64,000 bases of DNA from an uncultured Gammaproteobacteria bacterium. GTDB lineage: Bacteria; Pseudomonadota; Gammaproteobacteria; CAWCPV01. The stretch spans positions 64,001 through 128,000 of the forward strand of contig CAWCPV010000007.1 of the NCBI GenBank assembly GCA_963797555.1, read 5' to 3'. Shown here piece after piece: positions 10,642-41,417 of the stretch (positions within the stretch are counted from its first letter, which is position 1; the number at the start of each line of letters is the position of its first letter). Below the pieces are notes generated by a model. That model saw nothing but the letters and a program-made list of their open reading frames with translations, ran no database searches and was not told where the DNA came from. Position numbers and translations under genes: made by a program.

Positions 10642-10663
10642 GCAGGTTCTCTGCGGTAAATTC

Positions 10664-17826: not shown

Positions 17827-18303
17827 GCGCCCAGCGCAGAGGGGGTGTTCGCCTTCGCTGCGTGCTTCGAGAACGAATCGTTGGCGTCATTCCTGCCCCT
17901 CCGAAAGTCCTCGGCTTGCGCTCTCTGGAGGAGAGCATCGGCAAGAGTTCCCGCCTGCCCTTCAGAAAGGGGGGAATCCAAATCGGAGCACCATGGGCCC
18001 GGGAGGGCTAATAGTCCATGTGGGCGTCCCGATCAGGCAGGCGCGGGGAGAGCGGCACATGGATGAGGTGGATCATCGTGTGAGCGAAGACGGTGGTGGC
18101 GCGGTCATGACCGCGGCGCGCGCCGCGGCTTTTGGCTCGGCCCCGGATAGGCCCTTCCTGCGCACGGCGACGCTGGTCCAAGAGTTGTTGCGAGGCCGGA
18201 GGCAGCGGCGCGCATCACCTCAGACCACCGCCGCAAGCGCCTTTCCCGGTGATGCTATGGGTGTCCGCCATTTACGACGTGTTACAGTATGGCCCGCCGC
18301 GGC

Positions 18304-19866
18304 ATGACTAGCGCGCGTGCCATAGCGGGAGGATCGCTGCGAGCGCTGGCTTTTCTCGTTCTCGCCGTGGCGTATTTGATCTGGGGCTGGAACTCCGTCC
18401 TGGGAGATTTCGGCGGCGACAACGCAGTTTATCTGTTGACGGCGCAGTATTTGTCGCCGTATGCGCCGGCCAGCGACTTAGCCGCGCAGTTCGCACGAAA
18501 TAGCGCATTCCCGCCGCTGTTCCCCTTGCTGCTGGCGCTGACGGGCGGCGCGGAGAGTTTGCTGACGGCTCACATCGTTACCGTGTCCTGCCTCCTGGTG
18601 GCGTTTCTGCTCTATTACCTGTGGGCAAGGGAGGAGACGTCGTCGCCGTGGGCCGCATTTGCCGTTACAGCTTGTTTTGCTTTGTTACCCGGAACATATT
18701 TGCATGCGTTGTCGGTATTAAGCGAAAACCTCTATTTGGCACTCTGTATCGCGGCATTGTTCGGTGCATCCCGTTGGGAAAAAAGCGGAAAGCCAGATTG
18801 GCTGGTATTGTCGGCGTTTGCCGTGAGCGCAGCCTGCCTGACGCGAGGGGCGGGGATCGCGTTGCTGGCTGCATTCGTGGCCTATCTTTGGTTGAAACGT
18901 ATCCCTCGGCGGATTGGCTTGAGCCTGATATCAGCCTTGCCGGCGCTGACTTGGAACATTATCCGCGGCCAGAATGGCGGCGGCTACTGGGGAGACCTGT
19001 TCGAGCGCTACAGCGGAGACATTTTCGGGGCGTTGCAGCACCAACTGGGCCTCGAAGTCCAAGCCTTGTGGTCAGGCTGGGTGCTCAATTTCTGGTACAA
19101 CGTTGTCGCGCCTGTGATAGCTGGGGGACTGCTGCTTGCGGCAGTGGCGGGTCTCGCGTCCCGACTGAAGTCACGCAAATTGGATTCCATCTATGTAGTG
19201 TTTTACGTGGCCATGATGTTGGTCTGGCCTTTTCCGTTGGAAGTCGAACGTCTCGCCTTCGTTGTCTTGCCAGTACTGTTAGGGCAGGCTGTTTTCCTGG
19301 CAGTGCGGATGCGATTCGATAGGTTCAAGGTATTACGAGGGGCTCTGCTGACGGCGGGTTTGGGCGCGCTCCTCCTCGTCATCTTGCCGGAACTCTTGCT
19401 GGCAGAGCGACGGTTCTCTGCGCCCTTGCCAGAAACGCTCGCCCCGTATAGGCGCATAGCAGAGTGGTACTTGCCCGATCCGCAGCAAGGGATGGAGGAC
19501 CTGCTGGGCTATGAGGCGTGGGAGAGAGGCTTTCGTGGACTCTCGCATGCGATTCCGCCGGAGGAATGTGTCTATGTGATAAAGCCTGCAGTGGTGAGTT
19601 ACCTTTCCGGCCGCGTGGCGCGGGTGCCCCCGCCAGCGGCGTTGAGCGATACGGAGTTCCACGCGGCATTGGGGATCGGCGGCTGCCGTTACTTCTACCT
19701 CTTGGCCGCGCGCAGTCCGAGCTATCCCCAGGTGTTCTACCCTCGGGACAGGCTGCAGGGGCGTTTTGAGGTGGTGGAAATCACCGCCCTCGACGACGGC
19801 ACCGGCGGGCAGAACGCCGTAGGCATGCTGGTGCGCCTCAAGGACCACCGACAGAAAGGATCGTAG
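18304..19866 (+). CDS. GT-C / ArnT-PMT-like membrane glycosyltransferase, paralog A (intact)
   Basis: GGDNAVYLLTAQYLSPY, FPPLFPLLLA, LSENLY, LTRGAG; many TM segments. Confidence 0.75.
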   Translation: MTSARAIAGGSLRALAFLVLAVAYLIWGWNSVLGDFGGDNAVYLLTAQYLSPYAPASDLAAQFARNSAFPPLFPLLLALTGGAESLLTAHIVTVSCLLVAFLLYYLWAREETSSPWAAFAVTACFALLPGTYLHALSVLSENLYLALCIAALFGASRWEKSGKPDWLVLSAFAVSAACLTRGAGIALLAAFVAYLWLKRIPRRIGLSLISALPALTWNIIRGQNGGGYWGDLFERYSGDIFGALQHQLGLEVQALWSGWVLNFWYNVVAPVIAGGLLLAAVAGLASRLKSRKLDSIYVVFYVAMMLVWPFPLEVERLAFVVLPVLLGQAVFLAVRMRFDRFKVLRGALLTAGLGALLLVILPELLLAERRFSAPLPETLAPYRRIAEWYLPDPQQGMEDLLGYEAWERGFRGLSHAIPPEECVYVIKPAVVSYLSGRVARVPPPAALSDTEFHAALGIGGCRYFYLLAARSPSYPQVFYPRDRLQGRFEVVEITALDDGTGGQNAVGMLVRLKDHRQKGS

Positions 19867-19962
19867 CCCAAATGGGGCATCGGTTCACCGACTTGAAATA
19901 TCCGTACGCTCCGCCCCGGGTCCTGCCGCACAGGCGATTCGGCGGATTCGCGCGTGCAGCGG

Positions 19963-20529
19963 TCAAAGCAGACCCGTGTCCTCGTAAAGGTCGTCCTAGG
20001 ACAGCGGCACGGACAGTTCCCTGCACCCGATCTGAACGATGTCTTCCCGCCCCAGGGCCTGCTCCTGCCAGGTCTCGCCTGTGCGCTGCAGCAGTCGTAC
20101 GTGCCTTTTTTCGCTGTCCACCAGCAGGTAATAGCGCAGGCTGGGAATGTCGCGGTAGTGCAGCCATTTCTCCCGCTGGTCCACGGCTGCCGTGCTGGGT
20201 GAAAGAACTTCCGCCACGAAGCAGGGGGCGGTCTTGTAGATGGGGTGGTCGTCGCTCGGGTCGCACACCAGCATGACGTCGGGATAGTAGTAGGCGCGAT
20301 GGGCGGCAACGCGCAGCTTCATATCGGCCATCAGAGCGCGGCAGGGGTGCCCGCGGGTGGCGGCGCGCAGGTGGAAAAAGATGTTGCCGGTGATGCGGTT
20401 GTGCGGCTCGCTGCCGCCGCTCATGGCGAACGCATCGCCGGCCACGTACTCGCTCTTGACGACAGCGGCGGCCTCGGCGGCGAGGTATTCCTCCTCGCTG
20501 AGCAGGGTGTGTTCGAAAGGTGTACCCAC
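19963..20529 (-). CDS. Uma2-family endonuclease, with in-frame TAG at 19996 just before the natural end
   Basis: EYVAG..AMSGGSEPHNRI, YYPDVM, AEVLSPST..DQREK..Y; reads LS*DDLYEDTGLL*. Confidence 0.88.
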
Positions 20530-20716
20530 TTTTCGTTCCTCCGACGACCCCAGGATAGGCAGAGACGCGGGGCGGCGCAAGCCGACGGGGAGTCGGTGGC
20601 AACGGGCACGTACCGCCTCGGCGCCGCAAAACGGACAGCCGGCGGTGAAGCGGGTTCTGGCCATATGCCCCGGTTCACGCTCGACTCGCGTGCGGACTGA
20701 GAGCACGCAGCACCGG

Positions 20717-20725
20717 TGCTATACT
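20717..20725 (+). promoter_or_regulatory. Extended -10 promoter of DUF1640 gene
   Basis: TGCTATACT about 19 nt before the ATG; the second DUF1640 has TGGTATACT at a similar place (36993-37001, minus). Confidence 0.5.
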
Positions 20726-20743
20726 GCACTCCAGATCGAGAGC

Positions 20744-21145
20744 ATGAACATGTCCGTCGCCGCATTCGACACGCTGAAATTCGCCAACCGCCTCAAGCAG
20801 GCGGGTGTCCCCGAAAGGCAGGCGGAGGCCGAGGCTGAGGCGCTGGCCGAAGTCCTGGAGGTCAACCTCAAGGACCTCGCGACCAGGGATGACCTCTTGG
20901 CGGTCAAAGAAGACCTGTCGGCGGCCAAGGAAGAGCTGCGGCGCGATCTCGAGGGACTGGAGATTCGGCTGCAGGCCCGAATGGACAAGTTCGAGGCCAA
21001 GATCGCCGGCGAGTTCACACGGCTGAGCGGCGAGTTCACACGGCTGAGCGGCGAGGTGACGCTGCTCAAATGGATGCTGGGACTGGTACTGGGCGGTATC
21101 GTCGCGCTCATCCTCAAGGCTTTCTTTCCGCTAGGCGGGGCATGA
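20744..21145 (+). CDS. DUF1640/CCDC90-family coiled-coil membrane-anchored protein
   Basis: FDTLKFANRLKQAGVPERQAEAEAEAL..LATRDDL..LLKWMLGLVLGG. Confidence 0.88.
   Translation: MNMSVAAFDTLKFANRLKQAGVPERQAEAEAEALAEVLEVNLKDLATRDDLLAVKEDLSAAKEELRRDLEGLEIRLQARMDKFEAKIAGEFTRLSGEFTRLSGEVTLLKWMLGLVLGGIVALILKAFFPLGGA
21008..21055 (+). repeat. 21-bp in-frame tandem repeat (2 copies plus 6 bp)
   Basis: GGCGAGTTCACACGGCTGAGC x2 + GGCGAG, encoding the GEFTRLS heptad. Confidence 0.95.
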
Positions 21146-21460
21146 CGCTGGACGTGCATTAGCTTGCTGACTAAGGCGGCGGTGAGGCCGGTTCACTGTG
21201 CAATCCAGTTCCCTGCGTGGACTGGTCGAAGACGCTGACACGGACCCGGTAGCAAGCTCCGTTTCGGCATTGGGAAATAGCCACCAGGTTCCACCGTTTC
21301 CAGCAAGTGCCCTCAAACGCGTCATGCGCGCAAGGCTGAGCACCGGCTTGATCGCGACACCGCTGCGCGACAAGGGGATGGCGTCAATCCGCCTGTCGGG
21401 CGCTGACACCGGGAAGGCGATGGCGGCGTGCCGCGGAAGCTCCGCTCGACCACGAAATGA

Positions 21461-23050
21461 ATGAATGTGAAACCTGAGACCGTTTCTGCATCGCTGCGCG
21501 TGGGGGGCGTTTCTGGTTCTCGCCGTGGCGTATTTGATCTGGGGCTGGAGTTCCGTCCTGGGAGATTTCGGCGGGGACGGTGCCGTCTATTTGCTGACCG
21601 CGCAGTATTTCTCGCCGTACTCGTCCCACACCGACGTGGCCGCACAGTTCGCACGAAGTAGCCAATTTCCGCCGCTGTTCCCATTACTGCTGGCGCTGGC
21701 GGGTGGGGCGGAGAGTCTGCTGACGGCCCATGTGGTTACCGTGTCCTGTCTGCTGGTAGCGTTTCTGCTCTATTACCGATGGGTAAGAGAGGAGACCTCC
21801 TCGCCGTGGACCGCATTTGCCGTTACCGCTTGGTTTGCGTTGTTACCCGGAACCTATTTGCAGGCGCTGTCGGTACTGAGCGAGAACCTCTATTTGGGAC
21901 TGTGCATGGCGGCGTTTCTCGGCGCGTCGTGTTGGGAGGAAAGTGGACATTCACGTTGGCTCCTGTTGTCCGCCTTTGCCGTCGGCGCCGCCTGCCTGAC
22001 GCGGGGGGGGGTGGTATCGCGTTGCTGGCTGCGTTCGTGGCCTATCTCTAGTGGAAGCATGCTCGACAGTGGGTTGCCTTGAGCCTGATGTCTGCCTTTC
22101 CGGTGCTGACTTGGACCGTTCTACGCGGCCAGAATGGCGGCAGCTACTGGGCTGTTCTATTCGATCGCTACGGCGGGGACATTTTTTCGGTTTTGAAGCA
22201 GCAGCTGGACCCCGAAATCCATGCCTTGTGGTTAGGCTGGGTGGAAACTTTCGGGCACAGCGTCGTGGCGCCCGGGGTGGCTGGCGCGCTGCTACTTGCA
22301 GCGATGGCCGGTGTCGCGTCCCGATTGATTTCCCGCAAATTCGATTCGATCTATTTAGTATTTTATCTCGCTATGATTTCGGTCTGGCCTTTTCCGGCGG
22401 AAGGCACACGTTTCGTTTTTGTTATTGTGCCGATATTGCTAGCACAGGCTGTTTTGGTGGCGGTGCGGATACGGTTCGGTAGGTTCAAAGTATTACAATG
22501 GACTCTGCTGATGGCAGGTTTTGGGGCACCGTTCCTCGTCGTCTTGCCAGAACTTTTGCTCACAGAGCAACGATTTTTTGAGCCGTTGTCAGAAAAACTC
22601 GCGGCGTATAAGCGTGTGCCATGGTGGTACTTACCCGATTCGCGGGAAGGGGTGGAGGGACTGCTCCTCAGCGAGGCATGGGAGAGAGGCTTCCGTGGAC
22701 TGTCCCGCACTATCCCGACGCAGGACTGTGTCTATGTGATAAAACCTTCAGTGGCGCGTTACCTCTCCGGGCGCGTGGCGCGACCGCCACCGCGAGCGGC
22801 GTTGACGAATAAGGAGTTCGATGCGGCATTGGGCGTTAGCGGCTGCCGTTATTTCTATCTCATCGCCGCGCGGAGTCCGACCTATCCCGAGGCCATGTAT
22901 TTATTGGCCAGGCTACAAGGTCGGCTGGAGTTGTTGGAGACCACGACACTTGATGACGGCACGGGCACGCAGGGTGTGGGAGGTATGCTGGCACGCCTCA
23001 GAGACGGCCCGCAGAAGGGATCCCAGTCCAATGGGCCGCCGGCGCGGTGA
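21461..23050 (+). pseudogene. GT-C paralog B, duplicate of 18304..19866, disrupted
   Basis: Colinear DNA similarity to paralog A; extra G at about 21505, G9 run at 22003-22011, TGG->TAG at about 22049. Confidence 0.8.
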
Positions 23051-23248: not shown

Positions 23249-24520
23249 ATGAGCGAAGGGAGGAAGCGCGTACTCTTGGTCACAAGGAATCTCCCTCCCT
23301 TGCAGGGGGGCATGGAGCGCCTGCTCCATCACGTCTATCTGGAGCTTGCCAGGGAGTTCGACGTTCGAGTGATCGGCCCCAAAGGGTGTGAACCTTACCT
23401 CCACCCCCAAACCAGTTGTTATGCCGTTGCACCAGATCCTCTTTCACAGTTCTTGCCGAAAGTCCATTGGCGAGCCGTACAATCCGCAATGCAGTTCAGA
23501 CCGGCACTGATCTTTGCTGGAAGCGGCTTGACGGTCCCCGCAGCCCTGGTCGCCGGGCGCCTGACGCGGTGCCATCGTCGCCGGCTATCTGCATGGCTTG
23601 GATCTAGTAGTCGATAGCCCCGTGTACCAGTCCGTCTTCGTCCCGGCGATGCGATTGTGCGATGGCTTCCTGGTCAACAGCCGTCACACGCAGGCGCTCG
23701 CCTGGGCGGGCGGGCATCGACACCCGGAAGGTGTCGGATTCTCAATCCGGGGGTGGCCCTCCCCCTTTCCCTCTCCCTGCCTCGGGGGAATTCCGGAACC
23801 GCCTGGGTCTTGGGGACAGGCCGATATTGCTGAGCGCTGGCCGCCTGACCGCCCGCAAAGGGATCGGGGAGTTTATCCGCCATGGCCTCCCTCGGGTCGT
23901 GGATGAGTTGCAAGATGTGGTCTTTGTGGTGATCGGAGAGGAGGCCAAAGACGCCGCACGGAAGGACCAGAGGGTCAGGGCCGGCATTGTCGACGCGGCT
24001 CGTGCCCATGGGCTGGAGAAGAATGTCCTGTTGTTGGGTGCGGTGGACGACGACACCCTGTCGCAGGCTTATGCTTCCAGCCAGGTACTGGTGTTTCCGG
24101 TCCTGGAGGCGGAAGGCGACGTGGAGGGTTTTGGGATGGTCGCGGTGGAGGCGGCGGCCCATGGTCTGCCCACGGTGGCTTTCGCAGTGGGCGGGATTCC
24201 CGATGCGGTCGAGGAGGGGGTGTCCGGCTCCCTGATACCGTCCGGGCGACTACCGCCTGATGGCCAAGGCCCTGCTCGGCTATTTGAGGAAAGACGTCGC
24301 GGGCGTAAGCGCCACGAGCTGCCGCGCCTTTTCCGAGCGTTTCTCCTGGGAACGATTCGGCGAACGGCTGCGGCAGATCTGCGGGGAATGGATCGGCATC
24401 GCAAGGAGAACGACATGGCGAAGACTGAGCTGCAGGTCGGCTTCTCCCGGCTATACGGTGAGGCGGCCTTCGACGCGGCTGCCAGAGAAAGAAAGGCGCG
24501 TAAGGTCCTGGCGATCCTGA
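23249..24520 (+). CDS. GT4 glycosyltransferase, several frameshifts
   Basis: VLLVTRNLPPLQGGMERL; GRLTARKG; GDVEGFGMVAVEAAAHGLP; FSWERFGERL in successive frames. Confidence 0.82.
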
Positions 24521-25198
24521 GGGATTGCCTGGGAGATCTGAGTGCCCTCGAGGCATTGGACATAGGCTGCTCTACCGGGATTCATGACCAGGCTGTACGC
24601 CATGAATTTCAAGACCGTGGTAGGGACGGACGTGGACGAGCCGGCGGTGCGTTTTGCCGCTGGACGTAATGTTCTGCCCAACCTCTTCTGGACGGTCCAG
24701 GACTCGCAGCACCTGGGTTTCCGGGACGAGAGTTTCGACGTGATCACATGCACCCACATCTACGAGCACGTGCCGGATGCCGCTCGCCTGATGGACGAGA
24801 TCTACCGGCTGCTGAGGTGCGGGGGTGTGAGCTTCTTCTCCGCAGGCAATCGCCTCAGCCTGATTGAGCCCCACTACAGGCTGCCCTTATTGTCCGTTAT
24901 CCCAAAATGGCTGGCCCACAAGTATTTGAGGCTGGCCGGACGGGGGGACCATTACTACGAGAACCACCGGAGCCTCATGGGACTGCGAAGACTCGTGTCC
25001 CGGTTCGAGGTGATCGACTACACGCTTAAAGTGGTGCAAGATCCTGAAACATTTCATATGGAAGACCTGGTTGTGCCTGGCAGCGTCAAGCAGCGACTTG
25101 CTCTCGCGATACTCAGGATGGCCTATTGGTTATGCCCCACTTATCTGTGGGTTCTGAGGAAGCATCAACCTCCTCACAAGGCGGGGCGGGACCAATAG
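24415..25198 (+). CDS. Class I SAM-dependent methyltransferase, frameshift near 24580
   Basis: GGAG RBS; LDIGCSTG; FRDESFDVITCTHIYEHVPD; EPHYRLP. Confidence 0.82.
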
Positions 25199-31008: not shown

Positions 31009-32103
31009 ATGAGATTGCTGTTTCTGTACAAGCGCTGCCCGCAGGGTCGGGATCTCATCCAGCGTCCTTATGGGCGCTTTTATCATCTTCCGCGCCAGCT
31101 CGCCGCACGCGGACACGAGGTGCACGCGCTGCTGCTGGGCTATCGCCGGGAACCCGATGTGAACATGGTTCGAGATGGCGTTCACTGGATGGTCCGCAGC
31201 CTCATTCCATACGGCCCCTTGCCTTACTGGCACGCCGCCCGTTCCCTCACCCGCGCGGTCGGGCCGGACTGGATTATAGGCTTTTCGGACACCTATTTCG
31301 GCATCCTGGCGCACCGCCTTGCGGAACAGTATGGGGCGCGCTCCTGGATTGACGCCTACGACAACTACGAAAGCTATATGCCGTGGGCAAAGCCTCTACA
31401 CTGGCTATGGCGGCATGCGCTGTCGAAGGCAACCAGGATTTCCGCCGCAGGCCCCGGCCTTGCGCGACTGATGAGCCGTGATCGAGCCGCTGACCACGCC
31501 CTGGTGTTGCCCATGGCGGCGGATCCCGTGTTCGCCCCTCTGGTGGACCGCCGTGCCGTACGGCGTCGGCTTGGGTTGCAGCAAGAGCAAACACTGGTGG
31601 GCTACTGCGGATCCTTGTTCCCTAACCGCGGCCTGGAAGTGTTGTTCGCCGCCATGGAGCGCGTGCGCGCTCTAAGGCCTGAGGTTTCATTGGTGCTATC
31701 GGGTAGGCGGCACCCCCGCATCACCCTGCCTACGCACACGCTGTGGTTGGGCTACATTGAAGACGAGGTTATGCCTGACTTGGTCGGCAGCCTTGACTTG
31801 CTCACGGTAATCAACCAGGACTCCTCCTTCGGGCGCCACAGCCACCCCGTCAAGCTGTACGAAGCCATGCGCTGTGGCGTACCGGTGGCGGCGACCCGCA
31901 CCCCGGCGACCTCATGGATTCTAGCCAACCACCCGGAGATGCTCGCGGCCCCGGGCGATGCCCAAGACCTTGCCAGGGTGATCGGTACCAACCTCGAGCG
32001 ACGAGGATTTGTCGACTATCCGGACCAAACCGACTGGGAAGGTGTATCCCTGCGTTTTGAGGCAGCTTTGCAGGAACCCTTGCCTGCGCGTGGCCACGGA
32101 TGA
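31009..32103 (+). CDS. GT4 glycosyltransferase
   Basis: GYCGSLFPNRG, PVKLYEAMRCGVPVAAT. Confidence 0.88.
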   Translation: MRLLFLYKRCPQGRDLIQRPYGRFYHLPRQLAARGHEVHALLLGYRREPDVNMVRDGVHWMVRSLIPYGPLPYWHAARSLTRAVGPDWIIGFSDTYFGILAHRLAEQYGARSWIDAYDNYESYMPWAKPLHWLWRHALSKATRISAAGPGLARLMSRDRAADHALVLPMAADPVFAPLVDRRAVRRRLGLQQEQTLVGYCGSLFPNRGLEVLFAAMERVRALRPEVSLVLSGRRHPRITLPTHTLWLGYIEDEVMPDLVGSLDLLTVINQDSSFGRHSHPVKLYEAMRCGVPVAATRTPATSWILANHPEMLAAPGDAQDLARVIGTNLERRGFVDYPDQTDWEGVSLRFEAALQEPLPARGHG

Positions 32104-32390
32104 TGTCTCTCGGACGCTCGCGTAATGTCCTGGCCGGCTGAGAGTGGGCCGGCTGGCTGGGATCGCCATTAGCTAGCCGATTTTTCAGAGGATCCACCCC
32201 ACCTTGCATCGCCTCGAAGCTCCACTGTTCTTCTCCAAGGCGTCCCGGCGGGTAGCCCGTAGCCCAGACGCTGGCGTCAGCCGGAATGCGGAGACCCTAC
32301 GCTTTTCGCCGACACGGCCCGCAAGCGTTATTCTTCCCATCGCTTCCGCCCCGCTCCTGGGCAGAGAGGGCGTGCTAACGGCGCCCAAGC

Positions 32391-32953
32391 TCAATCCGCC
32401 CACAGGCCGGCCATCTCCAGGGAGATGGCGTCGAAGGGCTCGATGCGGACCGCGTCGTCGCCGACCCACGCGCCGAGCAGGAGCCAGCGGCCTTCGCGGT
32501 TAGTGTAGGCCTCCAGCAGGCGGGCATCGGGGTCGATGAGCCAGCAGTGAGATGTGCCGGCGGCGGCATAGCGCGGGAGCTTGAGCACCCGGTCGGTGCG
32601 GGCCGTAGCGGGCGAGAGGACCTCGCAAACCCAGTCGGGCGCGAGCTCGAACCACGCCGTCTGGGCAGCTTCGGCATCCGCTCGCGCCGCCAGCCGACGA
32701 GGTCGGGTACCAGGATGTCTTCGCCGAGATGCAGTTCGGGCTCGTCGAGGATCCACCAGCCGCCGGGGCCGCTGCCCCGGCCTCTTCCAAAGGGACCTAC
32801 CAGCTCGCCGCCGAGCAGCGAAGCTGCCAGTGCATGGCGCGGCGCGGGCCGCGGGTGGGTGTGGATTTCGCCCGCGATGATCTCGCCGACCACGTTGTCC
32901 GGCAGATCGAAGAGGTCCTCGTAGCGGGCGCGGCGTCCTGCGGGCTCGGTCAT
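32391..32953 (-). CDS. Uma2-family endonuclease copy 1, frameshift near 32660
   Basis: EIIAGE..PRPAPRH, LVPDLVGW, PDWVCEVLSPAT..DR..KL..YA. Confidence 0.88.
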
Positions 32954-33127
32954 GGGGTCGCGTGTCCTGGAGACTGCGCTTCACTGCATTATAGCGGATG
33001 CCATGGTGTTCGCCGCCTCGAGGATCGAGGGGCACATCCTTCCCTCGGGTTCGGTCGCGATGAAAGCCGGCCGCTCGATTTCCCCTGCGCCCCATCGGGG
33101 CTGGCCGCCGGAACCGCTGACATCATG

Positions 33128-33149
33128 GTGCCAATGAATTCGCACCTAC
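33128..33149 (-). repeat. GTAG-type REP element
   Basis: GTAG GTGCGAAT TC ATTGGCAC (one stem mismatch). Confidence 0.8.
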
Positions 33150-33341
33150 CCCCAAAGCGGAGCTAAAGCGCGTGCAGGCGGTTTCGTGTCCTCGGGCTTT
33201 CCCCTGCTTCTGGCTGGATTCCTCCCCGTATTATTTGGCTCTGCGACGCCACTGGCGATTGGCAGGATGTTCGGGATGGCGGTACGCCGACGGTCATGCG
33301 CCGGAACCGCCATCGTATTGCGTATAAGCTGGTTGGGGGTG

Positions 33342-33364
33342 GTAGGGCCGAATTCATTCGGCCC
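33342..33364 (+). repeat. GTAG-type REP element
   Basis: GTAG GGCCGAAT TC ATTCGGCC, perfect stem. Confidence 0.85.
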
Positions 33365-33379
33365 GTCACCTACCTGCGC

Positions 33380-33646
33380 CAATGCGGCGTCCACCAGCGA
33401 TCGGCTCGTTGTCCTCGCACTGCTCCGCTCCCGGAGATAAAGTGCCAGATCGGACCGCTGCGGCCGAGGGCCCGATTGACAGCTCTGGCTGAACGTGCGT
33501 TGACGGCTTCATCACCGCCGCCAGCGCGCTTCCTTCCCCGAGTTGAACTAGCCAATGCCGGTGGTCCGGCATTAGCACCCAGGCGAGCGAATCGACCAGC
33601 CCTTCCTCGTGCACCCTGTGCATCTCCGTGACCACCCGCTGCCCGA
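33380..33646 (-). pseudogene. RAYT (REP-associated tyrosine transposase), central/C-terminal part
   Basis: GQRVVTEMHRVHEEGLVDSLAWVLMPDHRHWLVQLGEG...RSARAVNRALGRSGPIW; HUH motif degraded to HRH. Confidence 0.8.
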
Positions 33647-33744
33647 CGCTGGGCTTCAGCAGCCCGCCGACGGAGTATCGAGCTACGAGCACCACGGACG
33701 AAGAGCAGCGCCACGGTATCGAGGATACCGCGTGCCCTCCTCGT

Positions 33745-34036
33745 GAGGCGAGGCCAGAGCTTGGGACTGCGTGCCATATGAAGCACAGCCAGCACAAGAA
33801 TCCGCGCTGGTTGAACTACGTAAAACAGGGCATAAGGGAATCGCAATAGGACGGCCCGCCGCACCTCGCCATGCACGAGCGCAAACATTCTCAGGGTGGC
33901 CTTGGATTGACTCGAACGAAGACCGAACGGCCGAAAGAAATTCCTCACCCAGCCCAGCCCCGTGCGCCTCGTACCACCTGAATGCAGCAGCCAAATCGCG
34001 CTCGACGCCGCGACGGAAGACTACCGGTAGAATCAT
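33745..34036 (-). CDS. RelE/ParE toxin, frameshift near 33890
   Basis: ERDLAAAFRWYE...GLGEEF; VRRAVLLRFPYALFY...ILVLAVLHMARSPKLW; ATGA overlap with antitoxin. Confidence 0.85.
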
Positions 34037-34254
34037 GAGGCTCGACGGGCCTCGGACAATACCTCTTCCAGGGTCAGAACGTTGGTCGGGTCGCGTTTGT
34101 CCTCGGCCAGCCGTTCTTCGAGAATCGCGATGTGTGCGTCGCTCAGGGGAAGCGACGAGGGATCGATGGCAATGCTTTCCCAGATAAGTTCAACGAGGCG
34201 AAGCCGGTCTTCAACCGGGAGCTTTAGGATTTCCGTTACGTTGACTTCAGCCAT
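34033..34254 (-). CDS. Addiction module antitoxin (TIGR02574-like)
   Basis: EILKLPVEDRLRLVELIWESI...LEERLA. Confidence 0.88.
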   Translation of the reverse strand: MAEVNVTEILKLPVEDRLRLVELIWESIAIDPSSLPLSDAHIAILEERLAEDKRDPTNVLTLEEVLSEARRAS

Positions 34255-34291
34255 AACCACCACCTTACCACTACTGTGTTCAGCGTGCTAA

Positions 34292-34392
34292 GTTTCAGTT
34301 CAGCGAAATACGGGTAGCTCGGTGCGTGGCCGCCGTTATCAGATACACCTGCCCCGGCGCCAGCGGCCCTTGCGCACCTCGTCGTAGGACAT
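34292..34392 (-). pseudogene. RAYT N-terminal part
   Basis: GGAG then MSYDEVRKGR..APGQVYLITAATH..PVF/FAELK across small indels, matching the RAYT LRxGRxSxPGxxYLIT start. Confidence 0.7.
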
Positions 34393-34405
34393 CTCCCAGT
34401 CCGTT

Positions 34406-34427
34406 GTGCGAATGAATTCGCACCTAT
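34406..34427 (-). repeat. REP element (GTAG degraded to ATAG)
   Basis: ATAG GTGCGAAT TC ATTCGCAC, perfect stem, just upstream of the RAYT start. Confidence 0.8.
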
Positions 34428-34689
34428 CCCACAATTGTAGGATCAGCTCAACGGACGGGATGAGGGGGGCGGCCCTCTTTCCGGGGCTGTGAGGCGCGGG
34501 AAGACCGAGGACATCGTCGTGCTCATGCCCGGACCTTCTTGCGATAGTCGACACATGATAAGTACTACCCTTCCTTTTGCCCCAGTGACATTGACCCGCG
34601 CGGCTCCCCGTTTTCGGGCAGAGGAGGAACTGCGAGATGAAGACCCGGCGCGCTGCGCTCGTCGTGCTTGCGTCTGTACCGGCGCGTGC

Positions 34690-35254
34690 TCAGTCCGCCC
34701 ACAGGCCGGCCATCTCCAGGGCGATCGCGTCGAAGGGCTCGATGCGGACCGCGTCGTCGCCACCCCACGCGCCGAGCAGGAGCCAGCGGCCTTCGCGGTT
34801 AGTGTAGGCTTCCAGCAGGCGGGAATCCGGGTCGATGAACCAGCAGTGCTGGATGCCAGCGGCGGCGTAGCGCGGAAGCTTGAGCACCCGGTCGGTGCGG
34901 GCCGTAGCGGGCGAAAGAACCTCGCAGACCCAGTCGGGTGCAAGCTCGAACCACGCCGTCTCGGGCAGCTTCGGCATCCGCTCGCGCCGCCAGCCGGCGA
35001 GGGCGGGCACCAGGATCTCTTCGCCGAGATGCAGTCTCGGGCTCGTCGAGGATCCACCAGCCGCCGGGGCCGCCGCCCTCGCCCTGATCGAACGGGCCGC
35101 CGACTTTGATTCCGAGCGAGGAGGTGGCCCGCGCATGCCGCGGGGCGGGGCGGGGGTGCGTGTGGACCTCGCCCGCGATGATCTCACCGACCACGTTGTC
35201 CGACAGATCGAAGAGGTCCTCGTAGCGTGCGCGGCGTTCTGCGGGCTCGGCCAT
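34690..35254 (-). CDS. Uma2-family endonuclease copy 2, frameshift near 35035
   Basis: Highly similar at DNA level to 32391..32953; same C-terminus EMAGLWAD. Confidence 0.88.
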
Positions 35255-35406
35255 GGGTCGTGGGTTCCGGACACTGTGCCTCGCTGCATTATAGCGAACG
35301 CTATGGCGTCCGCCCGCTTCGGAGGAATTGCAGGACACGTCCCTCTCTCAGGTTCGGTGACGGTGGACTCCGGCCGCCAGCGGGCACGGCTCACGCGATG
35401 TCTGCG

Positions 35407-35470
35407 CTAGAACAAAAGCCGCGTGAGCGTAGCCACTCCACCGGGCAGCAAGCGCAACATTCACTTGATG
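35407..35470 (-). pseudogene. DUF1640 C-terminal remnant
   Basis: IK*MLRLLPGGVATLTRLLF* aligns with IKWMLGLLLGGVAALVLKTFF* of 36725..36970. Confidence 0.7.
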
Positions 35471-35653
35471 CGCGAAAGTTGAATAGCTTCATCACCGCCG
35501 CCAGCTGGCTCCTTCCCCGCCCAGAAGTTCGAGGCTTCGCCCGGCGTGATATGGATGATTGGCCAAGCCGTCGAATTCGTCGCCTCTGACTCCGGAACGA
35601 TTGGGCATTGTGTTCCCCCCTGCCTTGCTACCATGCTGCATGTCCGACACTTG

Positions 35654-36025
35654 TTAGTTGCTGCGTCCTTCCTGGTCAGCATCAGCGCGAATGGCAGTGA
35701 CCTGCGCGACCAATCCGGGCAAGGCCGTCTGCACCGTCTCCCATACCACGTCAAGGTTAATGTCGAAGTAGCCATGGGCGATGCGATTGCGCATGCCGCG
35801 CATGTTGCGCCAGGGCACTTCCGGGTGGTGCTCGCCGAACTCCGCAAACCGATCCATTAGTCCGGTCGCGGCCTCGCCGATGATGACGAGACTCATGACG
35901 ACCGCTTGCTGGGTGCGCTTGTCGGCAAGGAATTCGTCCTTGCTCATGCCTTCAACGAACCTGCATGCGTCGGACGCCGCTTGCACGACGTGATCGAGGT
36001 AATCGGAAAGGCGCTTCTCGCTCAT
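35654..36025 (-). CDS. HEPN/DUF86 toxin (HepT-like)
   Basis: IIGEAA, PEVPWRNMRGMRNRIAHGYFDIN (RxxxxH). Confidence 0.92.
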   Translation of the reverse strand: MSEKRLSDYLDHVVQAASDACRFVEGMSKDEFLADKRTQQAVVMSLVIIGEAATGLMDRFAEFGEHHPEVPWRNMRGMRNRIAHGYFDINLDVVWETVQTALPGLVAQVTAIRADADQEGRSN

Positions 36026-36312
36026 ACCGGCGCCGCCTCGGCAAGCACTCTCTCCCGGAGCTTTGGCGGCAGGTCGCCTGGGGTCAGCAGATCGACGCTC
36101 GCACCCAACAGTTCTTCGAGTTCGACTTGCAGGCCGCCGAGATCGAAGAGCGTTGCCCCGGGCAGCGCATCCACCAGCAAATCGAGATCGCTGCCGTCGT
36201 GATCGGTGCCGTGCAGCACCGAACCAAAGACACGAGGGTTGGCGGCATGGAAGCGGCTTACCGCTTCGCGCACGGCAGCTCGTTGCAGATCGAGGGCGGT
36301 GGACGGCTTCAT
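36022..36312 (-). CDS. Minimal nucleotidyltransferase antitoxin (MntA-like)
   Basis: VFGSVLHGTDHDGSDLDLLV; ATGA overlap with HEPN gene. Confidence 0.92.
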   Translation of the reverse strand: MKPSTALDLQRAAVREAVSRFHAANPRVFGSVLHGTDHDGSDLDLLVDALPGATLFDLGGLQVELEELLGASVDLLTPGDLPPKLRERVLAEAAPV

Positions 36313-36526
36313 GGACAAAATCAGATTGATGCGGTAACGCAATTATGCGGAGGAGGCCACTGCAAAGTCCATCTTCGTCGGGCGGAGGAGGGCAGGACGA
36401 ATACCTCGTGACCTCGGTAGATCTCGGTCAGCCCGCGTCGGGCGGAAGGCCGCGAGGGCGATCCGGAGGGGCTCTCACTGCGACCTGCTTGCGATGGGCG
36501 AGGCCGTTTGGGAGCGGGGCGGACCA

Positions 36527-36562
36527 TTCGTAGCGGGCGCGGCGTTCTGCGAGTTCAGCCAT
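36527..36562 (-). pseudogene. Uma2 copy 3, only first 12 codons
   Basis: MAELAERRARYE versus MAEPAERRARYE of copy 2, behind the same upstream module. Confidence 0.75.
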
Positions 36563-36724
36563 GGGCCGTGTTCTCGATAGACTGCGGTTTGTCGGATTGT
36601 ACCGGATGCCGTAGCCTGGCCCGCTTTCCAAGATGACGGGAACACAGCCTTTTCTCAAATGCGGCCCGGAGGCATGCCGGCCGCCGCCAGGCATGGTTCA
36701 ACTCGGTTCAACCCCCTGTCCGCG

Positions 36725-36970
36725 CTAGAAGAACGTCTTGAGCACGAGCGCGGCGACTCCCCCGAGCAGCAATCCCAACATCCATTTGATGAGCAGAATG
36801 TCCGCCTTGATGGGCGCGAGCTCGATCTGGAGGTCTTTACGGGTCACTAAATCGGATTCACCTTGGGCTTCGCGGAAGGCGTCGGCGATGGCCTCTGCCT
36901 GAGCTTCGGGCAGCCCCGCATCCTTGAGCCGGCGGATGAACCTGTGTGTATCGAAGGTGGTGGCGGCCAT
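36725..36970 (-). CDS. Short DUF1640/CCDC90-family protein
   Basis: FDTHRFIRRLKDAGLPEAQAEAI..LVTRKDL..LLIKWMLG. Confidence 0.88.
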   Translation of the reverse strand: MAATTFDTHRFIRRLKDAGLPEAQAEAIADAFREAQGESDLVTRKDLQIELAPIKADILLIKWMLGLLLGGVAALVLKTFF

Positions 36971-37089
36971 GGCAGCTCGCTTCTATGCGCGAAGTATACC
37001 ACCCCCGCGCCACGTTCCGGGTGGCGGGTCTGCACGCCTGGAGGAGAACCGGGGGTGAGCAGGCGCAGCAGCCCTCCTGCCGCCAGGAT

Positions 37090-37695
37090 CTACGGAACCG
37101 CTTCGCCGCGCGGCAATTCCGGCCTGTAGGATTGCGGCCATTTCACTTGGCGATAAAGTTCTGACATGGACAGCCGGAGGCCGAGCCGGGGCAGTGCGAT
37201 CTCGGCCTCTAACCCGGCTGCCTCGGTAAGCTTCCACCCGCCCTCCGGCAGGCGCTCGAAGATCTCGCCGTGGGGGCGCTCTTGGTCCAACAAGAGGTAG
37301 TACTCCGGAGACTCGATGGCCCGATAGTGTTCGAACTTGAGGCCCCGGTCGTAGGAGGCGGTGGCAGGGGAGAGGACTTCCACGATCAGGCTGGGGGCTT
37401 CCACATAACGCTCATGGCGCCGTCCCGTCTCGCACAGGAGCATGAGATCCGGATAACAGAAGTGGTCGTGGGAGGCGACGTACAGCTTCATGTCGGCCCC
37501 ATAGACCCGGCAGGGCCACTCCCGCGTGGCGTTGACCAGGGCGGCTCCCGTGTTCATGGAAATCAGAGCATGGCGCTCCGATCCTCCGGCCATCGCGAAG
37601 ACTTCGCCGGCCAAGTACTCGTAGCGGCGATCTTGTTCCTGCTCCAGACGGAAATAGTCCTCGTGAGTGAGGTGCGTCTGGGGGGCGCGCTGCAT
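37090..37695 (-). CDS. Uma2-family endonuclease (intact)
   Basis: EYLAGEVFAMAGGSERH, YPDLM, IVEVLSPAT..YDRGLKF..Y. Confidence 0.92.
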   Translation of the reverse strand: MQRAPQTHLTHEDYFRLEQEQDRRYEYLAGEVFAMAGGSERHALISMNTGAALVNATREWPCRVYGADMKLYVASHDHFCYPDLMLLCETGRRHERYVEAPSLIVEVLSPATASYDRGLKFEHYRAIESPEYYLLLDQERPHGEIFERLPEGGWKLTEAAGLEAEIALPRLGLRLSMSELYRQVKWPQSYRPELPRGEAVP

Positions 37696-38109
37696 AATTA
37701 CCACTCCGCCCCTAGCCCGCCATGGTGATATTCGCCACCAGGGATTGTGAAAACCCGTGCGGCATGAACAGCGCCATCACCTCCTCCCTCTCGCGGCTCC
37801 TTTCCCGACCATGCAAGCCCTGTCGAGTCGAGGCAGGTAGCGTCCGCGACGTTCGCCGCTCGGTGCACCGGTCAGCGCCGCAACGAAGCCCGATAGACAC
37901 GACTCGCAGAGAAATGGCATTCTAGCACGGGTGCGGTTTAGAGACCAGGAGGGACCCGGGAAGGCGGTAGGCTTTTTCCTCGCTCGCCCCGCGAGGCGGG
38001 GACGGCTTCTCGGCGGGGGCGCCTGTACGCCATGCAGTGGCCCTGACGCCGCGGAAAGAACAAGCTCGGGAGAACGGATGCCGTAGCTCGCCCACGGCGG
38101 AGAGGAGCG

Positions 38110-38215
38110 AATCGGCGGCGAGTCGCTGACTCAGGTCATACACGAAACGGGGCTCACGATCGCCTTCCCAGCGGGGGAAAGTGGAAGTCGATACCAGAAG
38201 CGCAGGCTTTTGCAC
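38110..38215 (-). pseudogene. GT4 glycosyltransferase N-terminal remnant
   Basis: LLVSTSTFPRWEGDREPRFVYDLSQRLA directly after the GT2 stop, then lost. Confidence 0.65.
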
Positions 38216-38225
38216 ATTTATCGAG

Positions 38226-39095
38226 TCACTCGTGCTCGGTATGCGAATACAACAGGTTGGTGATCTGTTCCGAGACGAGTCCAATCAAGAAAATAAGGAT
38301 GGAAGACATGATGAGCAGCGCACTCATATTGGTGAACCGACCATGACTGACATAGGTGTAGACATAGTTTAGAAGTCCGAGCGCGAACTGGAGACCGCTG
38401 ACCGGCAGAAATATCTTGAGAGGGGAATAGAGAGTCCCGACGCGGAAGATGATCACGAGGAAGCGGACCCCGTCGTGCACGGGCCGGATATGGCTGCGGC
38501 TGTTGGCCGTCCGGCGGGCTGCGTGGATGGGTACGTAGGCTATTGGCAAGCCGGCGCGGAAGAAGGCCATGGTGATGGTGGTGGGGTAGGAGAACCCGTT
38601 GGGCAGCAGGTAGAGGAATTCCCGGAACCGATGGGCACGGACCGCGCGGAAGCCGGACGTCAGGTCCTCGACCCGATGTCCTACCATCCAGCTCGCCAGG
38701 CGGTTGTAGCACGCGTTGGCCAAGTTGCGCAGCGCGGAACTCTGCGAGCCGGAATCTCGGGCCCCGACGGCCATATCGTAGCCCATGTCAAGGGCGACGA
38801 GCAGGCCGGGGATGTCTGCGGGGTCGTGCTGGCCGTCGGCATCCATGAACACCAGCGTGCCGCCGTTCGCAGCGCGGGCGCCGGTCTTGACCGCTCCTCC
38901 ATTGCCGACGCCGTAGGGGTGTTGGATAAGGGTGACCCGATGGGCGGAGCATACCTGGGCCGTGTCGTCCTTCGACCCGTCGTCCACGACGATGATTTCG
39001 GCATCCGGGTACCGTTGAACCAGGTCGGGAAGCAGGCTCTTGAGGCTATTCGCCTCGTCTCGGGCCGGCAGGATGATGCTCAGAGGGGGATTCAT
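38226..39095 (-). CDS. GT2 glycosyltransferase (polyprenol-phosphate sugar synthase-like)
   Basis: VVDDGSKD, MDADGQHDP, DLTSGFRA, two C-terminal TM helices. Confidence 0.92.
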   Translation of the reverse strand: MNPPLSIILPARDEANSLKSLLPDLVQRYPDAEIIVVDDGSKDDTAQVCSAHRVTLIQHPYGVGNGGAVKTGARAANGGTLVFMDADGQHDPADIPGLLVALDMGYDMAVGARDSGSQSSALRNLANACYNRLASWMVGHRVEDLTSGFRAVRAHRFREFLYLLPNGFSYPTTITMAFFRAGLPIAYVPIHAARRTANSRSHIRPVHDGVRFLVIIFRVGTLYSPLKIFLPVSGLQFALGLLNYVYTYVSHGRFTNMSALLIMSSILIFLIGLVSEQITNLLYSHTEHE

Positions 39096-39329: not shown

Positions 39330-39471
39330 GCCATCCCCTTACACACAAATCAGCACCCTGCCGTCGTTCCGGCATGGATTGCCGGAATCCAGAGGCCAGG
39401 GACGGCAATCCGATCACATCCCTGTGTCCTGGATTCCGCCATTCCCTGGCGGAATGACGAGATATGTGTAA
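39330..39471. repeat. Palindromic miniature repeat (double-hairpin, GTCATTCC...GGAATGAC type)
   Basis: CGTCGTTCCGGC-ATGGATT-GCCGGAATCCAG ... CTGGATTCCGCCA-TTCCC-TGGCGGAATGACG, with outer TTACAC/GTGTAA inverted ends. Confidence 0.75.
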
Positions 39472-39740: not shown

Positions 39741-41417
39741 TTATTTGTCACTCACCCCGGCGCTGAGCCGCCGCTCCTCCCTGCGGCGGCTCCTTCCACT
39801 CCAGCAGCGCGGCGGCGATGCCTCGACGTTTCCCATCGGTCTGGTAAGACACGAAGAGCGGTTTGACGGCGTCCTTGACCCGGTCGTAGGGATAGAGCGG
39901 ACGGATAGGTGATGCCTACGGTCGTAGCCGATGTTACGAACAGATAGCGGCAGCGTCTGGCGCGCTCCAGGAACTGGCCCTCGTGGTGTGTTCGGAATCG
40001 GCGTGTAGTACGTGAGCCGCCGGGAGAAAATCATCACCAGGTCGGCGTGCGAAGCGTACACGCAATCTGCGGGGCCCACATAGTCGGGAATCGTTTTGGC
40101 AGCGACGATCACTCGGTGCATCGAACTCGGTGTTACGACGGGCTAGTCGGTCCGATACCGCGCCGAGCCAGACCTCGGTCCGCCTGTAGGGTGAGAGGTC
40201 TGCATCGAGGGGCTGAAGAAATCTTCGCGCCAGAAGCGCGTCGGTAGGAGACGAGACGAGCAGGGCGGCGACGCAGCAAGCATGCGGCATCAGTCTGAGT
40301 GCGGTGTGCCTGCTGCGTTCGACGAGCGTCTGCGACGCCAGCACTGCATAAAGCAGCAGGATGGGCAGAACGACGTAAAGGAACCGGGGAACATGGGCGG
40401 GAAACGGCCAGAACAGGACGATGAGCAGATAGAAGATCACATAAAACGCGTCGAGCCGGCGCCGCCGAAGACGCTGCACCAGTCCCGCCGCTGCCAGAAG
40501 CAGCAGTGCGCTGCAGACGGGAATGGCGCCCCGATAGGTCCAGAAGGTATCGAACGAGGTGATCCAGCTCCTCCACAGCACGACGGCTTGCACCTTGAAA
40601 GTCTTCGCCAAGCCGGCCATCTTGGCTTCGCGCAGAAAGTCGGCGTACATAGCCAGGTACGGCATAGCCCCCGCATGCAGCGACTTGTAGAGGCCCCACA
40701 GGGCTACGGGCAGCGCGCTCACCACGGCGAGGGGTGCCTTCCGCCGCATCCCGCCTCGATGATGGAAGTGGAGGTACAGCAGAAAGGCCGGGATCAGCGC
40801 GACTCCTACGGTTCGCGTCAGCGTCGCGAGGCCCACCAGGGCGGCCGTTGCGTACCACCAGGCTTCCCGGCGCAGCGCTGCCTTGGCGGTCAGGAATGCC
40901 GCCAGCGTCAGGAGCAGGTAGAGGTTCTCGCTGAGCACCCGGAGCGACTGAAAGATTGTGGCGGGGAGGGCGGCGAATGCGACCACGGTGAGCAGGGCGA
41001 GGGCCCGGCTGCCGGTCTCTTGCCTGGCCCAGGCGAAGAAAGCCGCGAGGGAGGCCAGCAAGAAGACGGTGGTGATCAGGTGGGCGAGGGCGATGCGATG
41101 GCTTCCCGCCCCGAGCAACGCCAGGGCCAGCGGGTACAAGGGTGGGAACTGGGCCGTCGAAAAGACCCGCTCGGCGAGGTTGGGTTCGTGGCCGCCGGCC
41201 GCTGCCTCATAGGGGGACAGGTAATCCGCCATGAAGAGGTAACGGACCGAGTCAGACGTGAAGCCCGTGACCGGGATGGGGTAGGTGAGATAGACATAGA
41301 ACGCGCAAAGGGACAGGAAAACGAGCGCTATCGGGAGCGCCCCGGGAATGCCGCGGCCCCTCGAACGGGGCTGGACTGGGCTTCGATCGCGTCGACCAGC
41401 TCACTTTCGGTCGCCAT
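39741..41417 (-). CDS. GT-C paralog C (same family as 18304..19866), frameshifted near both ends
   Basis: DSVRYLFMADYLSPY, FPPLYPLALAL, LSENLY, LTRTVG; tail DCVY...RYLF...YPYDRVK. Confidence 0.72.

Follow-up and report, generated by a model that had tools for sequence, protein, structure and literature searches.

The PD-EXX-K site of the COG4636/DUF820 family, to which the Uma2 proteins belong, was defined by Feder and Bujnicki (2005; PMC551604), and the authors report that no neighbour recurs within 3 kb of these genes, with tandem duplication as the sole exception, and propose selfish proliferation and a recombinogenic role for the family. According to Makarova, Wolf and Koonin (2009; PMC2701414), Uma2 is a likely solo toxin that is found mostly in cassettes of paralogous genes, and lineage-specific expansions are described by Omelchenko et al. 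(2005; PMC1274311) and in a 2022 comparison of Thermosynechococcus genomes (PMC9403480). Here we analyse a Uma2 array in 64,000 nucleotides (the window) from an uncultured Gammaproteobacteria bacterium (assembly GCA_963797555.1, contig CAWCPV010000007.1, positions 64,001 to 128,000), whose genome assembly comprises 20 contigs and 5.35 Mb at 84.6% completeness. On the minus strand between positions 32391 and 37704, a non-coding leader followed by a Uma2 gene or the stub of one occurs three times, in two cases behind a DUF1640-type gene or the remains of one, and toxin-antitoxin (TA) genes lie between the copies.

Combining alignments, profile searches and neighbourhood counts, we suggest, with a probability of roughly 65%, that this region is an old, partly decayed and invaded cassette of Uma2 paralogues and that it behaves as genes of the Uma2/COG4636 family are known to do. 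In common with the cassettes described for the family, it has tandem or near-tandem paralogues in a genome with 19 Uma2 matches, a PD...EXX...K motif in both of its Uma2 types (Uma2-A and Uma2-B), no fixed partner, a neighbourhood of TA genes and a signature of purifying selection (ratio of nonsynonymous to synonymous divergence, dN/dS, of 0.20). It differs from them in that the duplicated unit takes in a DUF1640 gene and a spacer, in that TA modules interrupt the array, and in that, of its Uma2-B copies, two are frameshifted as assembled and the third is a stub of 12 codons. As a system the region probably does nothing today; Uma2-A, the DUF1640 gene, the MNT-HepT pair and the antitoxin gene are still intact in the assembly.

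The array is headed by Uma2-A (37090-37704), an intact gene for a nuclease-like (PD-EXX-K) protein of 204 amino acids (aa) that scores 108 bits against the Uma2 profile PF05685 (cut-off 27). Behind it lies unit 3, which consists of an intact DUF1640-type gene of 81 aa (36725-36970), leader 3 (36563-36724; 162 nt) and a 12-codon Uma2-B stub (36527-36562; MAELAERRARYE), after which homology stops. Unit 2 retains no more of its DUF1640 gene than the final 22 codons (35407-35473), with an in-frame stop (TGG to TGA at 35461-35463), and they are followed by leader 2 (35255-35406; 152 nt) and by Uma2-B copy 2 (34690-35254), which is full length but, as assembled, has one additional base at about 35036; its two frames together cover the whole family alignment. 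Unit 1 consists of leader 1 (32954-33100; about 147 nt) and the full-length Uma2-B copy 1 (32391-32953), in which one base is missing between 32662 and 32663 in the assembly. Leaders 1, 2 and 3 carry the hexamers TATAAT, TATAAT and TACAAT about 34 nt ahead of the ATGs at 32953, 35254 and 36562, and these -10-like boxes may be promoters; a scan with consensus promoter and terminator models left all three boxes uncalled, as no -35 element reaches 4/6, and found no terminators.

The three units are homologous. In local alignments of the leader pairs z is 32.7 for leaders 1 and 2, 16.4 for leaders 1 and 3 and 11.8 for leaders 2 and 3, and none of 1000 dinucleotide shuffles reaches any of the observed scores; under a harsher scoring scheme the alignment of leaders 2 and 3 becomes weak (26/1000 shuffles). 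Leaders 1 and 2 are 68% identical and leader 3 is 56-59% identical to the others. The homology extends beyond the leaders: in a regional blastn, 32389-33074 matches 34688-35377 at 86% identity over 692 nt (no identical stretch exceeds 46 nt), 35220-35473 aligns with 36528-36794 in a match that takes in the DUF1640 tail (E 5e-11), and 32919-33002 matches 36528-36610 (E 1.8e-10). A first-pass annotation of this DNA had described three diverged leaders, a -10 hexamer ahead of each Uma2 start and DUF1640 3' ends in front of two of the leaders, and all of this holds; its description of two full-length Uma2 genes and a stub is right about the stub, but both long genes are frameshifted in the assembly. 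A blastn of the whole genome with the leaders gave no match outside this window, to which the unit is confined, and an Rfam scan of 31500-38500 gave nothing relevant, the sole match being a chance lncRNA well under its gathering score (E 0.084).

The copies are also old. Over 161 codons, Uma2-B copies 1 and 2 have a synonymous divergence (dS) of 0.37 at a dN/dS of 0.20, and the 3' part of the gene is closer between the copies (92-95% identity, dS 0.26) than the 5' part (82%, dS 0.54), perhaps owing to stronger constraint or to conversion in the distant past. Only the C-terminal frames of the two copies are recognized by PF05685 (52.7 and 57 bits). The PD...EXX...K pattern can be read as VPD...CEVLSPATARTDRVLK in Uma2-B and as YPD...VEVLSPATASYDRGLK in Uma2-A, with residue roles taken from Feder and Bujnicki (PMC551604). 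A single open reading frame (ORF) of about 190 aa is found for Uma2-A and for a further Uma2 gene at 19996-20706, but not for either long Uma2-B copy as assembled or for the stub; at both break sites the frame is continuous in an intact paralogue on another contig of this genome (L081) and in an orthologue from Thiohalocapsa (L009).

Both junctions between units are occupied by genes of other kinds. Between units 3 and 2 lie a gene for an antitoxin-like MNT-type nucleotidyltransferase (36022-36342; 106 aa; PF01909, 35.1 bits, cut-off 21), which also matches the PADLOC candidate PDC-S09, and a gene for a HepT-like (HEPN) RNase (35654-36025; 123 aa; PF01934, 96.4 bits, cut-off 23.5) that overlaps the MNT stop by 4 nt. 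With both profiles above their cut-offs and the genes adjacent, this is an MNT-HepT pair, and it resembles the MntA-HepT systems in that the nucleotidyltransferase gene lies directly upstream of the HepT-like gene with a 4-nt overlap; the pair has no unusual feature here and sits between the units as a passenger. It is followed by a 35-nt RAYT piece (35486-35519), which matches the larger RAYT remnant of the next junction at 33506-33540 (self-blastn, 91% over 35 nt, E 3e-7).

The junction between units 2 and 1 holds an antitoxin-ParE-RAYT block bounded by two copies of a hairpin, REP_a, with an 8-bp stem: one at 34406-34430 marks the upstream edge of the block, and the other, 92% identical to it, lies at 33128-33152 immediately upstream of leader 1. 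Within the block are an antitoxin-like gene (34033-34263, minus strand; 76 aa) that matches PF09720, a putative addiction module component, at 53.5 bits (cut-off 23.3), a ParE-like toxin gene (33750-34036, minus strand; 3' end approximate) and the N-terminal half of a RAYT or IS200-like Y1 transposase (33366-33797, minus strand), and a second hairpin, REP_b (33345-33364; GGGCCGAAT..ATTCGGCCC), adjoins the latter. The toxin is split over two frames with a break near 33880 and matches PF05016 at profile positions 1-48 in one frame and 63-88 in another (17.6 and 13.6 bits, cut-off 23), so that only the antitoxin of this would-be ParDE-type pair scores above its cut-off. Likewise, the RAYT remnant matches PF01797 at positions 3-70 of 121 (18.8 bits, cut-off 23) and is no full-length Y1_Tnp. 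The antitoxin-then-toxin order agrees with ParE/RelE modules that carry PF09720 antitoxins, and a Y1 fragment with palindromic hairpins on both sides agrees with RAYT/REP elements; the locus differs from both in that the toxin is in two frames, only half of the RAYT is left and the hairpins are not a genome-wide repetitive extragenic palindromic (REP) family. REP_a occurs twice in the genome at up to 3 mismatches, the two copies bracketing this block, and REP_b also occurs twice, the other copy lying on contig C16. Mobile-element sequence, the RAYT piece at 35486-35519 in one case and REP_a at 33128-33152 in the other, thus stands immediately upstream of both long units. The cargo named in the first-pass annotation is in place as far as the MNT-HepT pair, the PF09720 antitoxin with its ParE partner and the RAYT piece are concerned, but the ParE gene is frameshifted and the RAYT is partial. 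Small genes on one strand with a repeat between them and TA genes among the cargo recall integron cassettes, from which the array differs in that its repeat is a spacer plus a gene body and not a short attC-type inverted repeat; profile scans of the window's 38 large ORFs, and of those in the region itself, found no integrase family and do not support an integron cassette array.

Based on these data, we suggest the following history. The ancestral unit would have comprised a DUF1640 gene, a spacer of 150-160 nt with its own -10-like box and Uma2-B, all in one direction and behind Uma2-A in a glycan cluster. This unit may then have been duplicated in tandem twice; as the leader of unit 3 has diverged furthest, the lineage of that unit would have been the first to split off, with the separation of units 1 and 2 coming later. 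After duplication, insertions with accompanying deletions would have struck both inter-unit junctions: the MNT-HepT pair and the RAYT scrap would have replaced the third Uma2-B copy from codon 13 onward, together with the DUF1640 gene that came next except for its final 22 codons, and the REP_a-bounded block would have replaced the DUF1640 gene ahead of unit 1. The structural truncations on which this history draws, namely the short Uma2-B stub, the DUF1640 remnant of 22 codons with its in-frame stop and the half RAYT, lie beyond any sequencing error and stand whether the frameshifts are real or not.

Several observations weigh against this picture of an old, decayed cassette. The proposed order of duplications and insertions is read from levels of identity, and it may have been different. 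With a dN/dS of 0.20 at a dS of 0.37, both long Uma2-B copies have been under selection for most of their divergence and, consequently, their decay is recent at most or not real. In addition, contigs assembled from four public metagenome runs (X1 to X4) contain in-frame states at both break sites: a base added behind 32662 has a depth of 7.95 of 10.1 in X1, 4.41 of 4.41 in X2 and 4.18 of 4.18 in X3, and one base fewer at 35035/35036 has a depth of 12.3 of 12.3 in X2 and 9.73 of 27.3 in X4, where the contigs concerned are about 6% diverged from the window and may derive from relatives or from the other copy. The assembly also has frame breaks elsewhere. A check of 98 conserved genes (117 kb aligned) returned six split pairs, one of which is an antisense shadow of Uma2-B copy 2, leaving five splits in four genes, or about 1 per 23 kb; a smaller check with proteins matched 11 of 14 queries and found one split, in a GlmS paralogue. 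Frame breaks are about ten-fold denser in the array (three in 5.5 kb) than in these conserved genes, which speaks for real breaks, whereas the low dN/dS and the in-frame contigs speak for errors of the consensus; the three 1-nt frameshifts may be either. Finally, four of the five DUF1640 loci of this genome lie beside a Uma2 gene in four different arrangements, which simple duplication does not explain.

Frameshift-like splits in conserved genes of this genome are located at 289.7 kb of contig C7, at 330.7 and 331.6 kb and at 35.7 kb of C9, at 629.8 kb of C3 and at 42.1 kb of C6, and belong either to the assembly or to the organism. Within the window, in the stretch 23249-25198, a GT4 glycosyltransferase seems to be spread over three frames (23249-23617, 23598-23700 and from 23662 onward), and the methyltransferase that follows it changes frame near 24590, so that its S-adenosylmethionine-binding motif is read in a different frame from the remainder; frame breaks therefore seem to be dense across the glycan cluster.

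The same public contigs show how the array varies. Contigs drop rare variants and are a weak test of recombinants, and spans without contig cover, such as 33036-33587, are uninformative. The junction of unit 2 is bridged by a 220-nt contig that matches 35285-35504 exactly (leader 2, the DUF1640 remnant and the RAYT piece), and that of unit 3 by a 419-nt contig with four differences that covers 36250-36668 (the MNT start, the stub and leader 3). Two joints are clear. One, from 36668 to 37101 in X1, X2 and X3, lacks 432 nt, a loss that takes in the DUF1640 gene, 56 nt of leader 3 and the three final codons of Uma2-A; two letters are added where the sides meet, the shorter of which measures 30 nt, and the strain of origin shows about 92% identity in Uma2-A. 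The other, from 36112 to 36210 in X1 and X3, lacks 97 nt of the MNT gene. Both are strain-level deletions in relatives that are about 92-99% identical, and they are illegitimate deletions, not unit-to-unit exchanges. Five further joints (33363 to 34406/7, 33050 to 35373, 34938 to 35036, 34938 to 32725 and 32646 to 35036) were discounted, given sides of 19-38 nt or an out-of-register position, and other loci or organisms are their most likely source; the two that connect different Uma2-B copies (34938 to 32725 and 32646 to 35036) have short sides and are about 90 nt out of register.

Among the explanations that compete with an old cassette, the one that survives best, although we regard it as unlikely, is that DUF1640 and Uma2 act together as a two-gene module, in this lineage at any rate, for example with the tail-anchored DUF1640 protein as a regulator or antidote of the solo toxin or with the two as a defence pair. 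This genome has five DUF1640 loci, and the four that lie within 1 kb of a Uma2 gene compare with a chance expectation of about 0.05 loci (simple arithmetic); moreover, Uma2-A matches the PADLOC single-gene candidate PDC-S03. In two other genomes a DUF1640 gene is likewise followed by a Uma2 gene on the same strand, with a gap of 144 nt in one (L016) and of about 750 nt in the other, Thiohalocapsa halophila DSM 6210 (L009), where the Uma2 gene is the orthologue of Uma2-B. Yet the four pairs of this genome differ among themselves in order, strand and spacing: the pair near 20 kb of the window consists of divergent genes, namely the Uma2 gene at 19996-20706 (minus strand; PF05685, 108.8 bits) and a long-form DUF1640 gene at 20744-21145 (plus strand; 133 aa; PF07798, 33.2 bits); the pair near 37 kb reads Uma2 then DUF1640; that on contig C5 reads Uma2-B, RAYT scrap, then DUF1640; and that on contig C16 reads DUF1640, repeats, then Uma2. 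The first two of these, at 19996-21145 and 36725-37704, are the additional Uma2/DUF1640 pairs that the first-pass annotation had listed. Strains related to this one, moreover, drop the DUF1640 gene and retain Uma2-A.

Outside this genome the adjacency is at or near chance. Around the relatives of the 81-aa protein, 4 of 80 DUF1640 loci (the best 80 of 148 confirmed) have a Uma2 within the flanks of about 4 kb, as judged by a Uma2 hidden Markov model built from 14 paralogues of this genome (E <= 1e-3), and only 1 of 146 nearest-neighbour ORFs is a Uma2. The genomes that contain the first 50 of these loci, 50 in all, have 439 Uma2 matches (a sum that takes in 19 from the unpublished genome G059), almost all without a DUF1640 neighbour, and three adjacencies were seen where about 0.9 were expected (Poisson P about 0.06). 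Seen from the other side, 1 of 80 Uma2-B subfamily loci (the best 80 of 564 confirmed in a search with a two-sequence alignment) has a DUF1640 within 3 kb, while 12 of the 80 have a second or third Uma2. In four genomes with DUF1640 matches, taken from 40 relatives that share the class only, 0 of 8 DUF1640 loci, one of them in the unpublished genome G039, has a Uma2 within 10 kb. Feder and Bujnicki (PMC551604) report no recurrent neighbour either. The commonest neighbour of a DUF1640 gene is another DUF1640 gene: 28 of the 80 loci have at least two matches, which by our reading are separate ORFs in 25 of them, and the other neighbours include porins, IlvD, HemN, PIN, BrnT, VapB, YhgA-like and IS200 genes. 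A conserved two-gene pairing of DUF1640 and Uma2 across genomes is not supported by these counts, and the adjacency that the first-pass annotation had proposed to count is thus above chance in this genome (4/5) but at or near chance elsewhere. As that annotation had supposed, no such system seems to have been described, in that our literature search gave, among the matches listed, no paper naming both Uma2 and DUF1640. What is left is the co-location in this one genome, an unexplained oddity.

The DUF1640-type protein itself probably belongs to the DUF1640/CCDC90-like family (PF07798), small tail-anchored coiled-coil proteins of Proteobacteria. At 81 aa it has a coiled-coil head and a hydrophobic C-terminal tail (KWMLGLLLGGVAALVLKTFF), a putative membrane anchor; it scores 32.8 bits against PF07798, just below the cut-off of 33.5, and has 236 homologues at E <= 0.001, of which nearly all among the matches listed carry a precomputed PF07798 and to which, as listed, it is 58-80% identical. 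It shares with the family the tendency to tandem copies and differs from it in its neighbours, which elsewhere are usually DUF1640 or unrelated genes and not Uma2. We know of no function for bacterial DUF1640 members. It is conceivable, though we consider it quite unlikely, that in this lineage and perhaps more widely DUF1640-type tail-anchored coiled-coil proteins are functionally tied to Uma2, for instance as membrane-bound regulators or antidotes of the solo toxin. In that case the DUF1640-leader-Uma2 unit would be an operon with an internal promoter, and action in trans, with many paralogues involved, would account for the scarcity of such neighbours in other genomes; the traces of such a tie, if it is real, would be the 4/5 co-location here and the two same-strand pairs in other Proteobacteria.

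Across the 80 DUF1640 loci, short DUF1640 genes often stand in same-strand tandem arrays of two to four genes in varied contexts. In Thiohalocapsa, three copies of a REP-like palindromic repeat of about 100 nt lie between the DUF1640 gene and the intact Uma2-B orthologue (L009:2705-3456). On contig C5 (L082, C5:9500-13500), a second place with this set of genes, at about 10500-12260, holds a Uma2-B paralogue with a C-terminus that continues in another frame and two RAYT-like N-terminal fragments that enclose a DUF1640 gene of 95 aa. A REP family as the cause of the DUF1640/Uma2 co-location was rejected, as the two hairpins of the array have two copies each and lie near 0 of the 5 DUF1640 loci.

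Less probable again is the proposal of the first-pass annotation that the three repeats are working homologous-recombination anchors, by which the array would grow and shrink and its TA or defence cargo would be exchanged from strain to strain. Related strains do vary in this region, as the 432-nt and 97-nt joints show, units 1 and 2 share the 46-nt identical run, a repeat-cargo-repeat shape recurs at 18289-23050, and Feder and Bujnicki (PMC551604) speculated that dispersed COG4636 copies could promote rearrangements. The repeats, however, differ by 14% between units 1 and 2 and by up to about 40% from unit 3, whose leader is 56-59% identical to the others, and a dS of 0.37 means that there has been no recent homogenisation. 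The variants that we see are out-of-register deletions and not exchanges between units; no in-register unit-to-unit joint was seen in the contigs of the four runs, which drop rare variants, and the cross-copy joints, with their short sides, look like related genes from other organisms. Genes of the cargo are themselves decaying (ParE, RAYT). Because the long copies are 86% identical with a dS of 0.37 and a dN/dS of 0.20, nothing suggests an array that is actively cycling, and working anchors are improbable.

Very improbably, finally, the repeats or breaks are an artefact of a mixed-population assembly, by chimeric consensus or false duplication: a 20-contig assembly at 84.6% completeness, the ten-fold density of frame breaks and the several co-occurring variants of the stretch in metagenome contigs would fit, and an artefact would account for the three 1-nt frameshifts, but not for the architecture, given that copies that differ by 14-40% cannot arise from a collapsed or expanded repeat, that contigs from independent runs bridge the unit 2 and 3 junctions and that the truncations of genes are structural and not single-base errors.

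Read as an old and invaded Uma2 cassette, the locus matters little for new biology: it documents, base by base, one more case of Uma2 multiplication, and shows TA modules and a RAYT landing at the seams of a cassette inside a variable glycan locus. It also carries two cautions, namely that a conspicuous alternation of repeats and cargo can be the debris of old events and does not have to reveal a mechanism, and that genes that are close neighbours in a single genome (4/5) can lose this association once it is counted across families (4/80, 1/80).

The glycan-locus setting given in the first-pass annotation is borne out by a profile scan of the 38 large ORFs of the window, in which the surroundings of the array comprise glycosyltransferases, a DegT aminotransferase, a flippase and PMT_2-like membrane proteins; across this cluster the G+C content dips mildly, to 0.57-0.63 as against 0.647. 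A gene for a PMT_2-like membrane protein of 525 aa is present in a 3.16-kb direct duplication (18289-23050) with 77-84% identity, whose copies flank the divergent Uma2 and long DUF1640 genes at 19996-20706 and 20744-21145; the second copy is split in two frames at about 22080. On the other side of the array, a REP-like pair of 41-nt inverted repeats (39362-39459; 16-nt loop, 78% complementary) adjoins a PMT_2-like paralogue at 39934-41232, the C-terminus of which seems to be continued out of frame by the ORF at 39741-40121.

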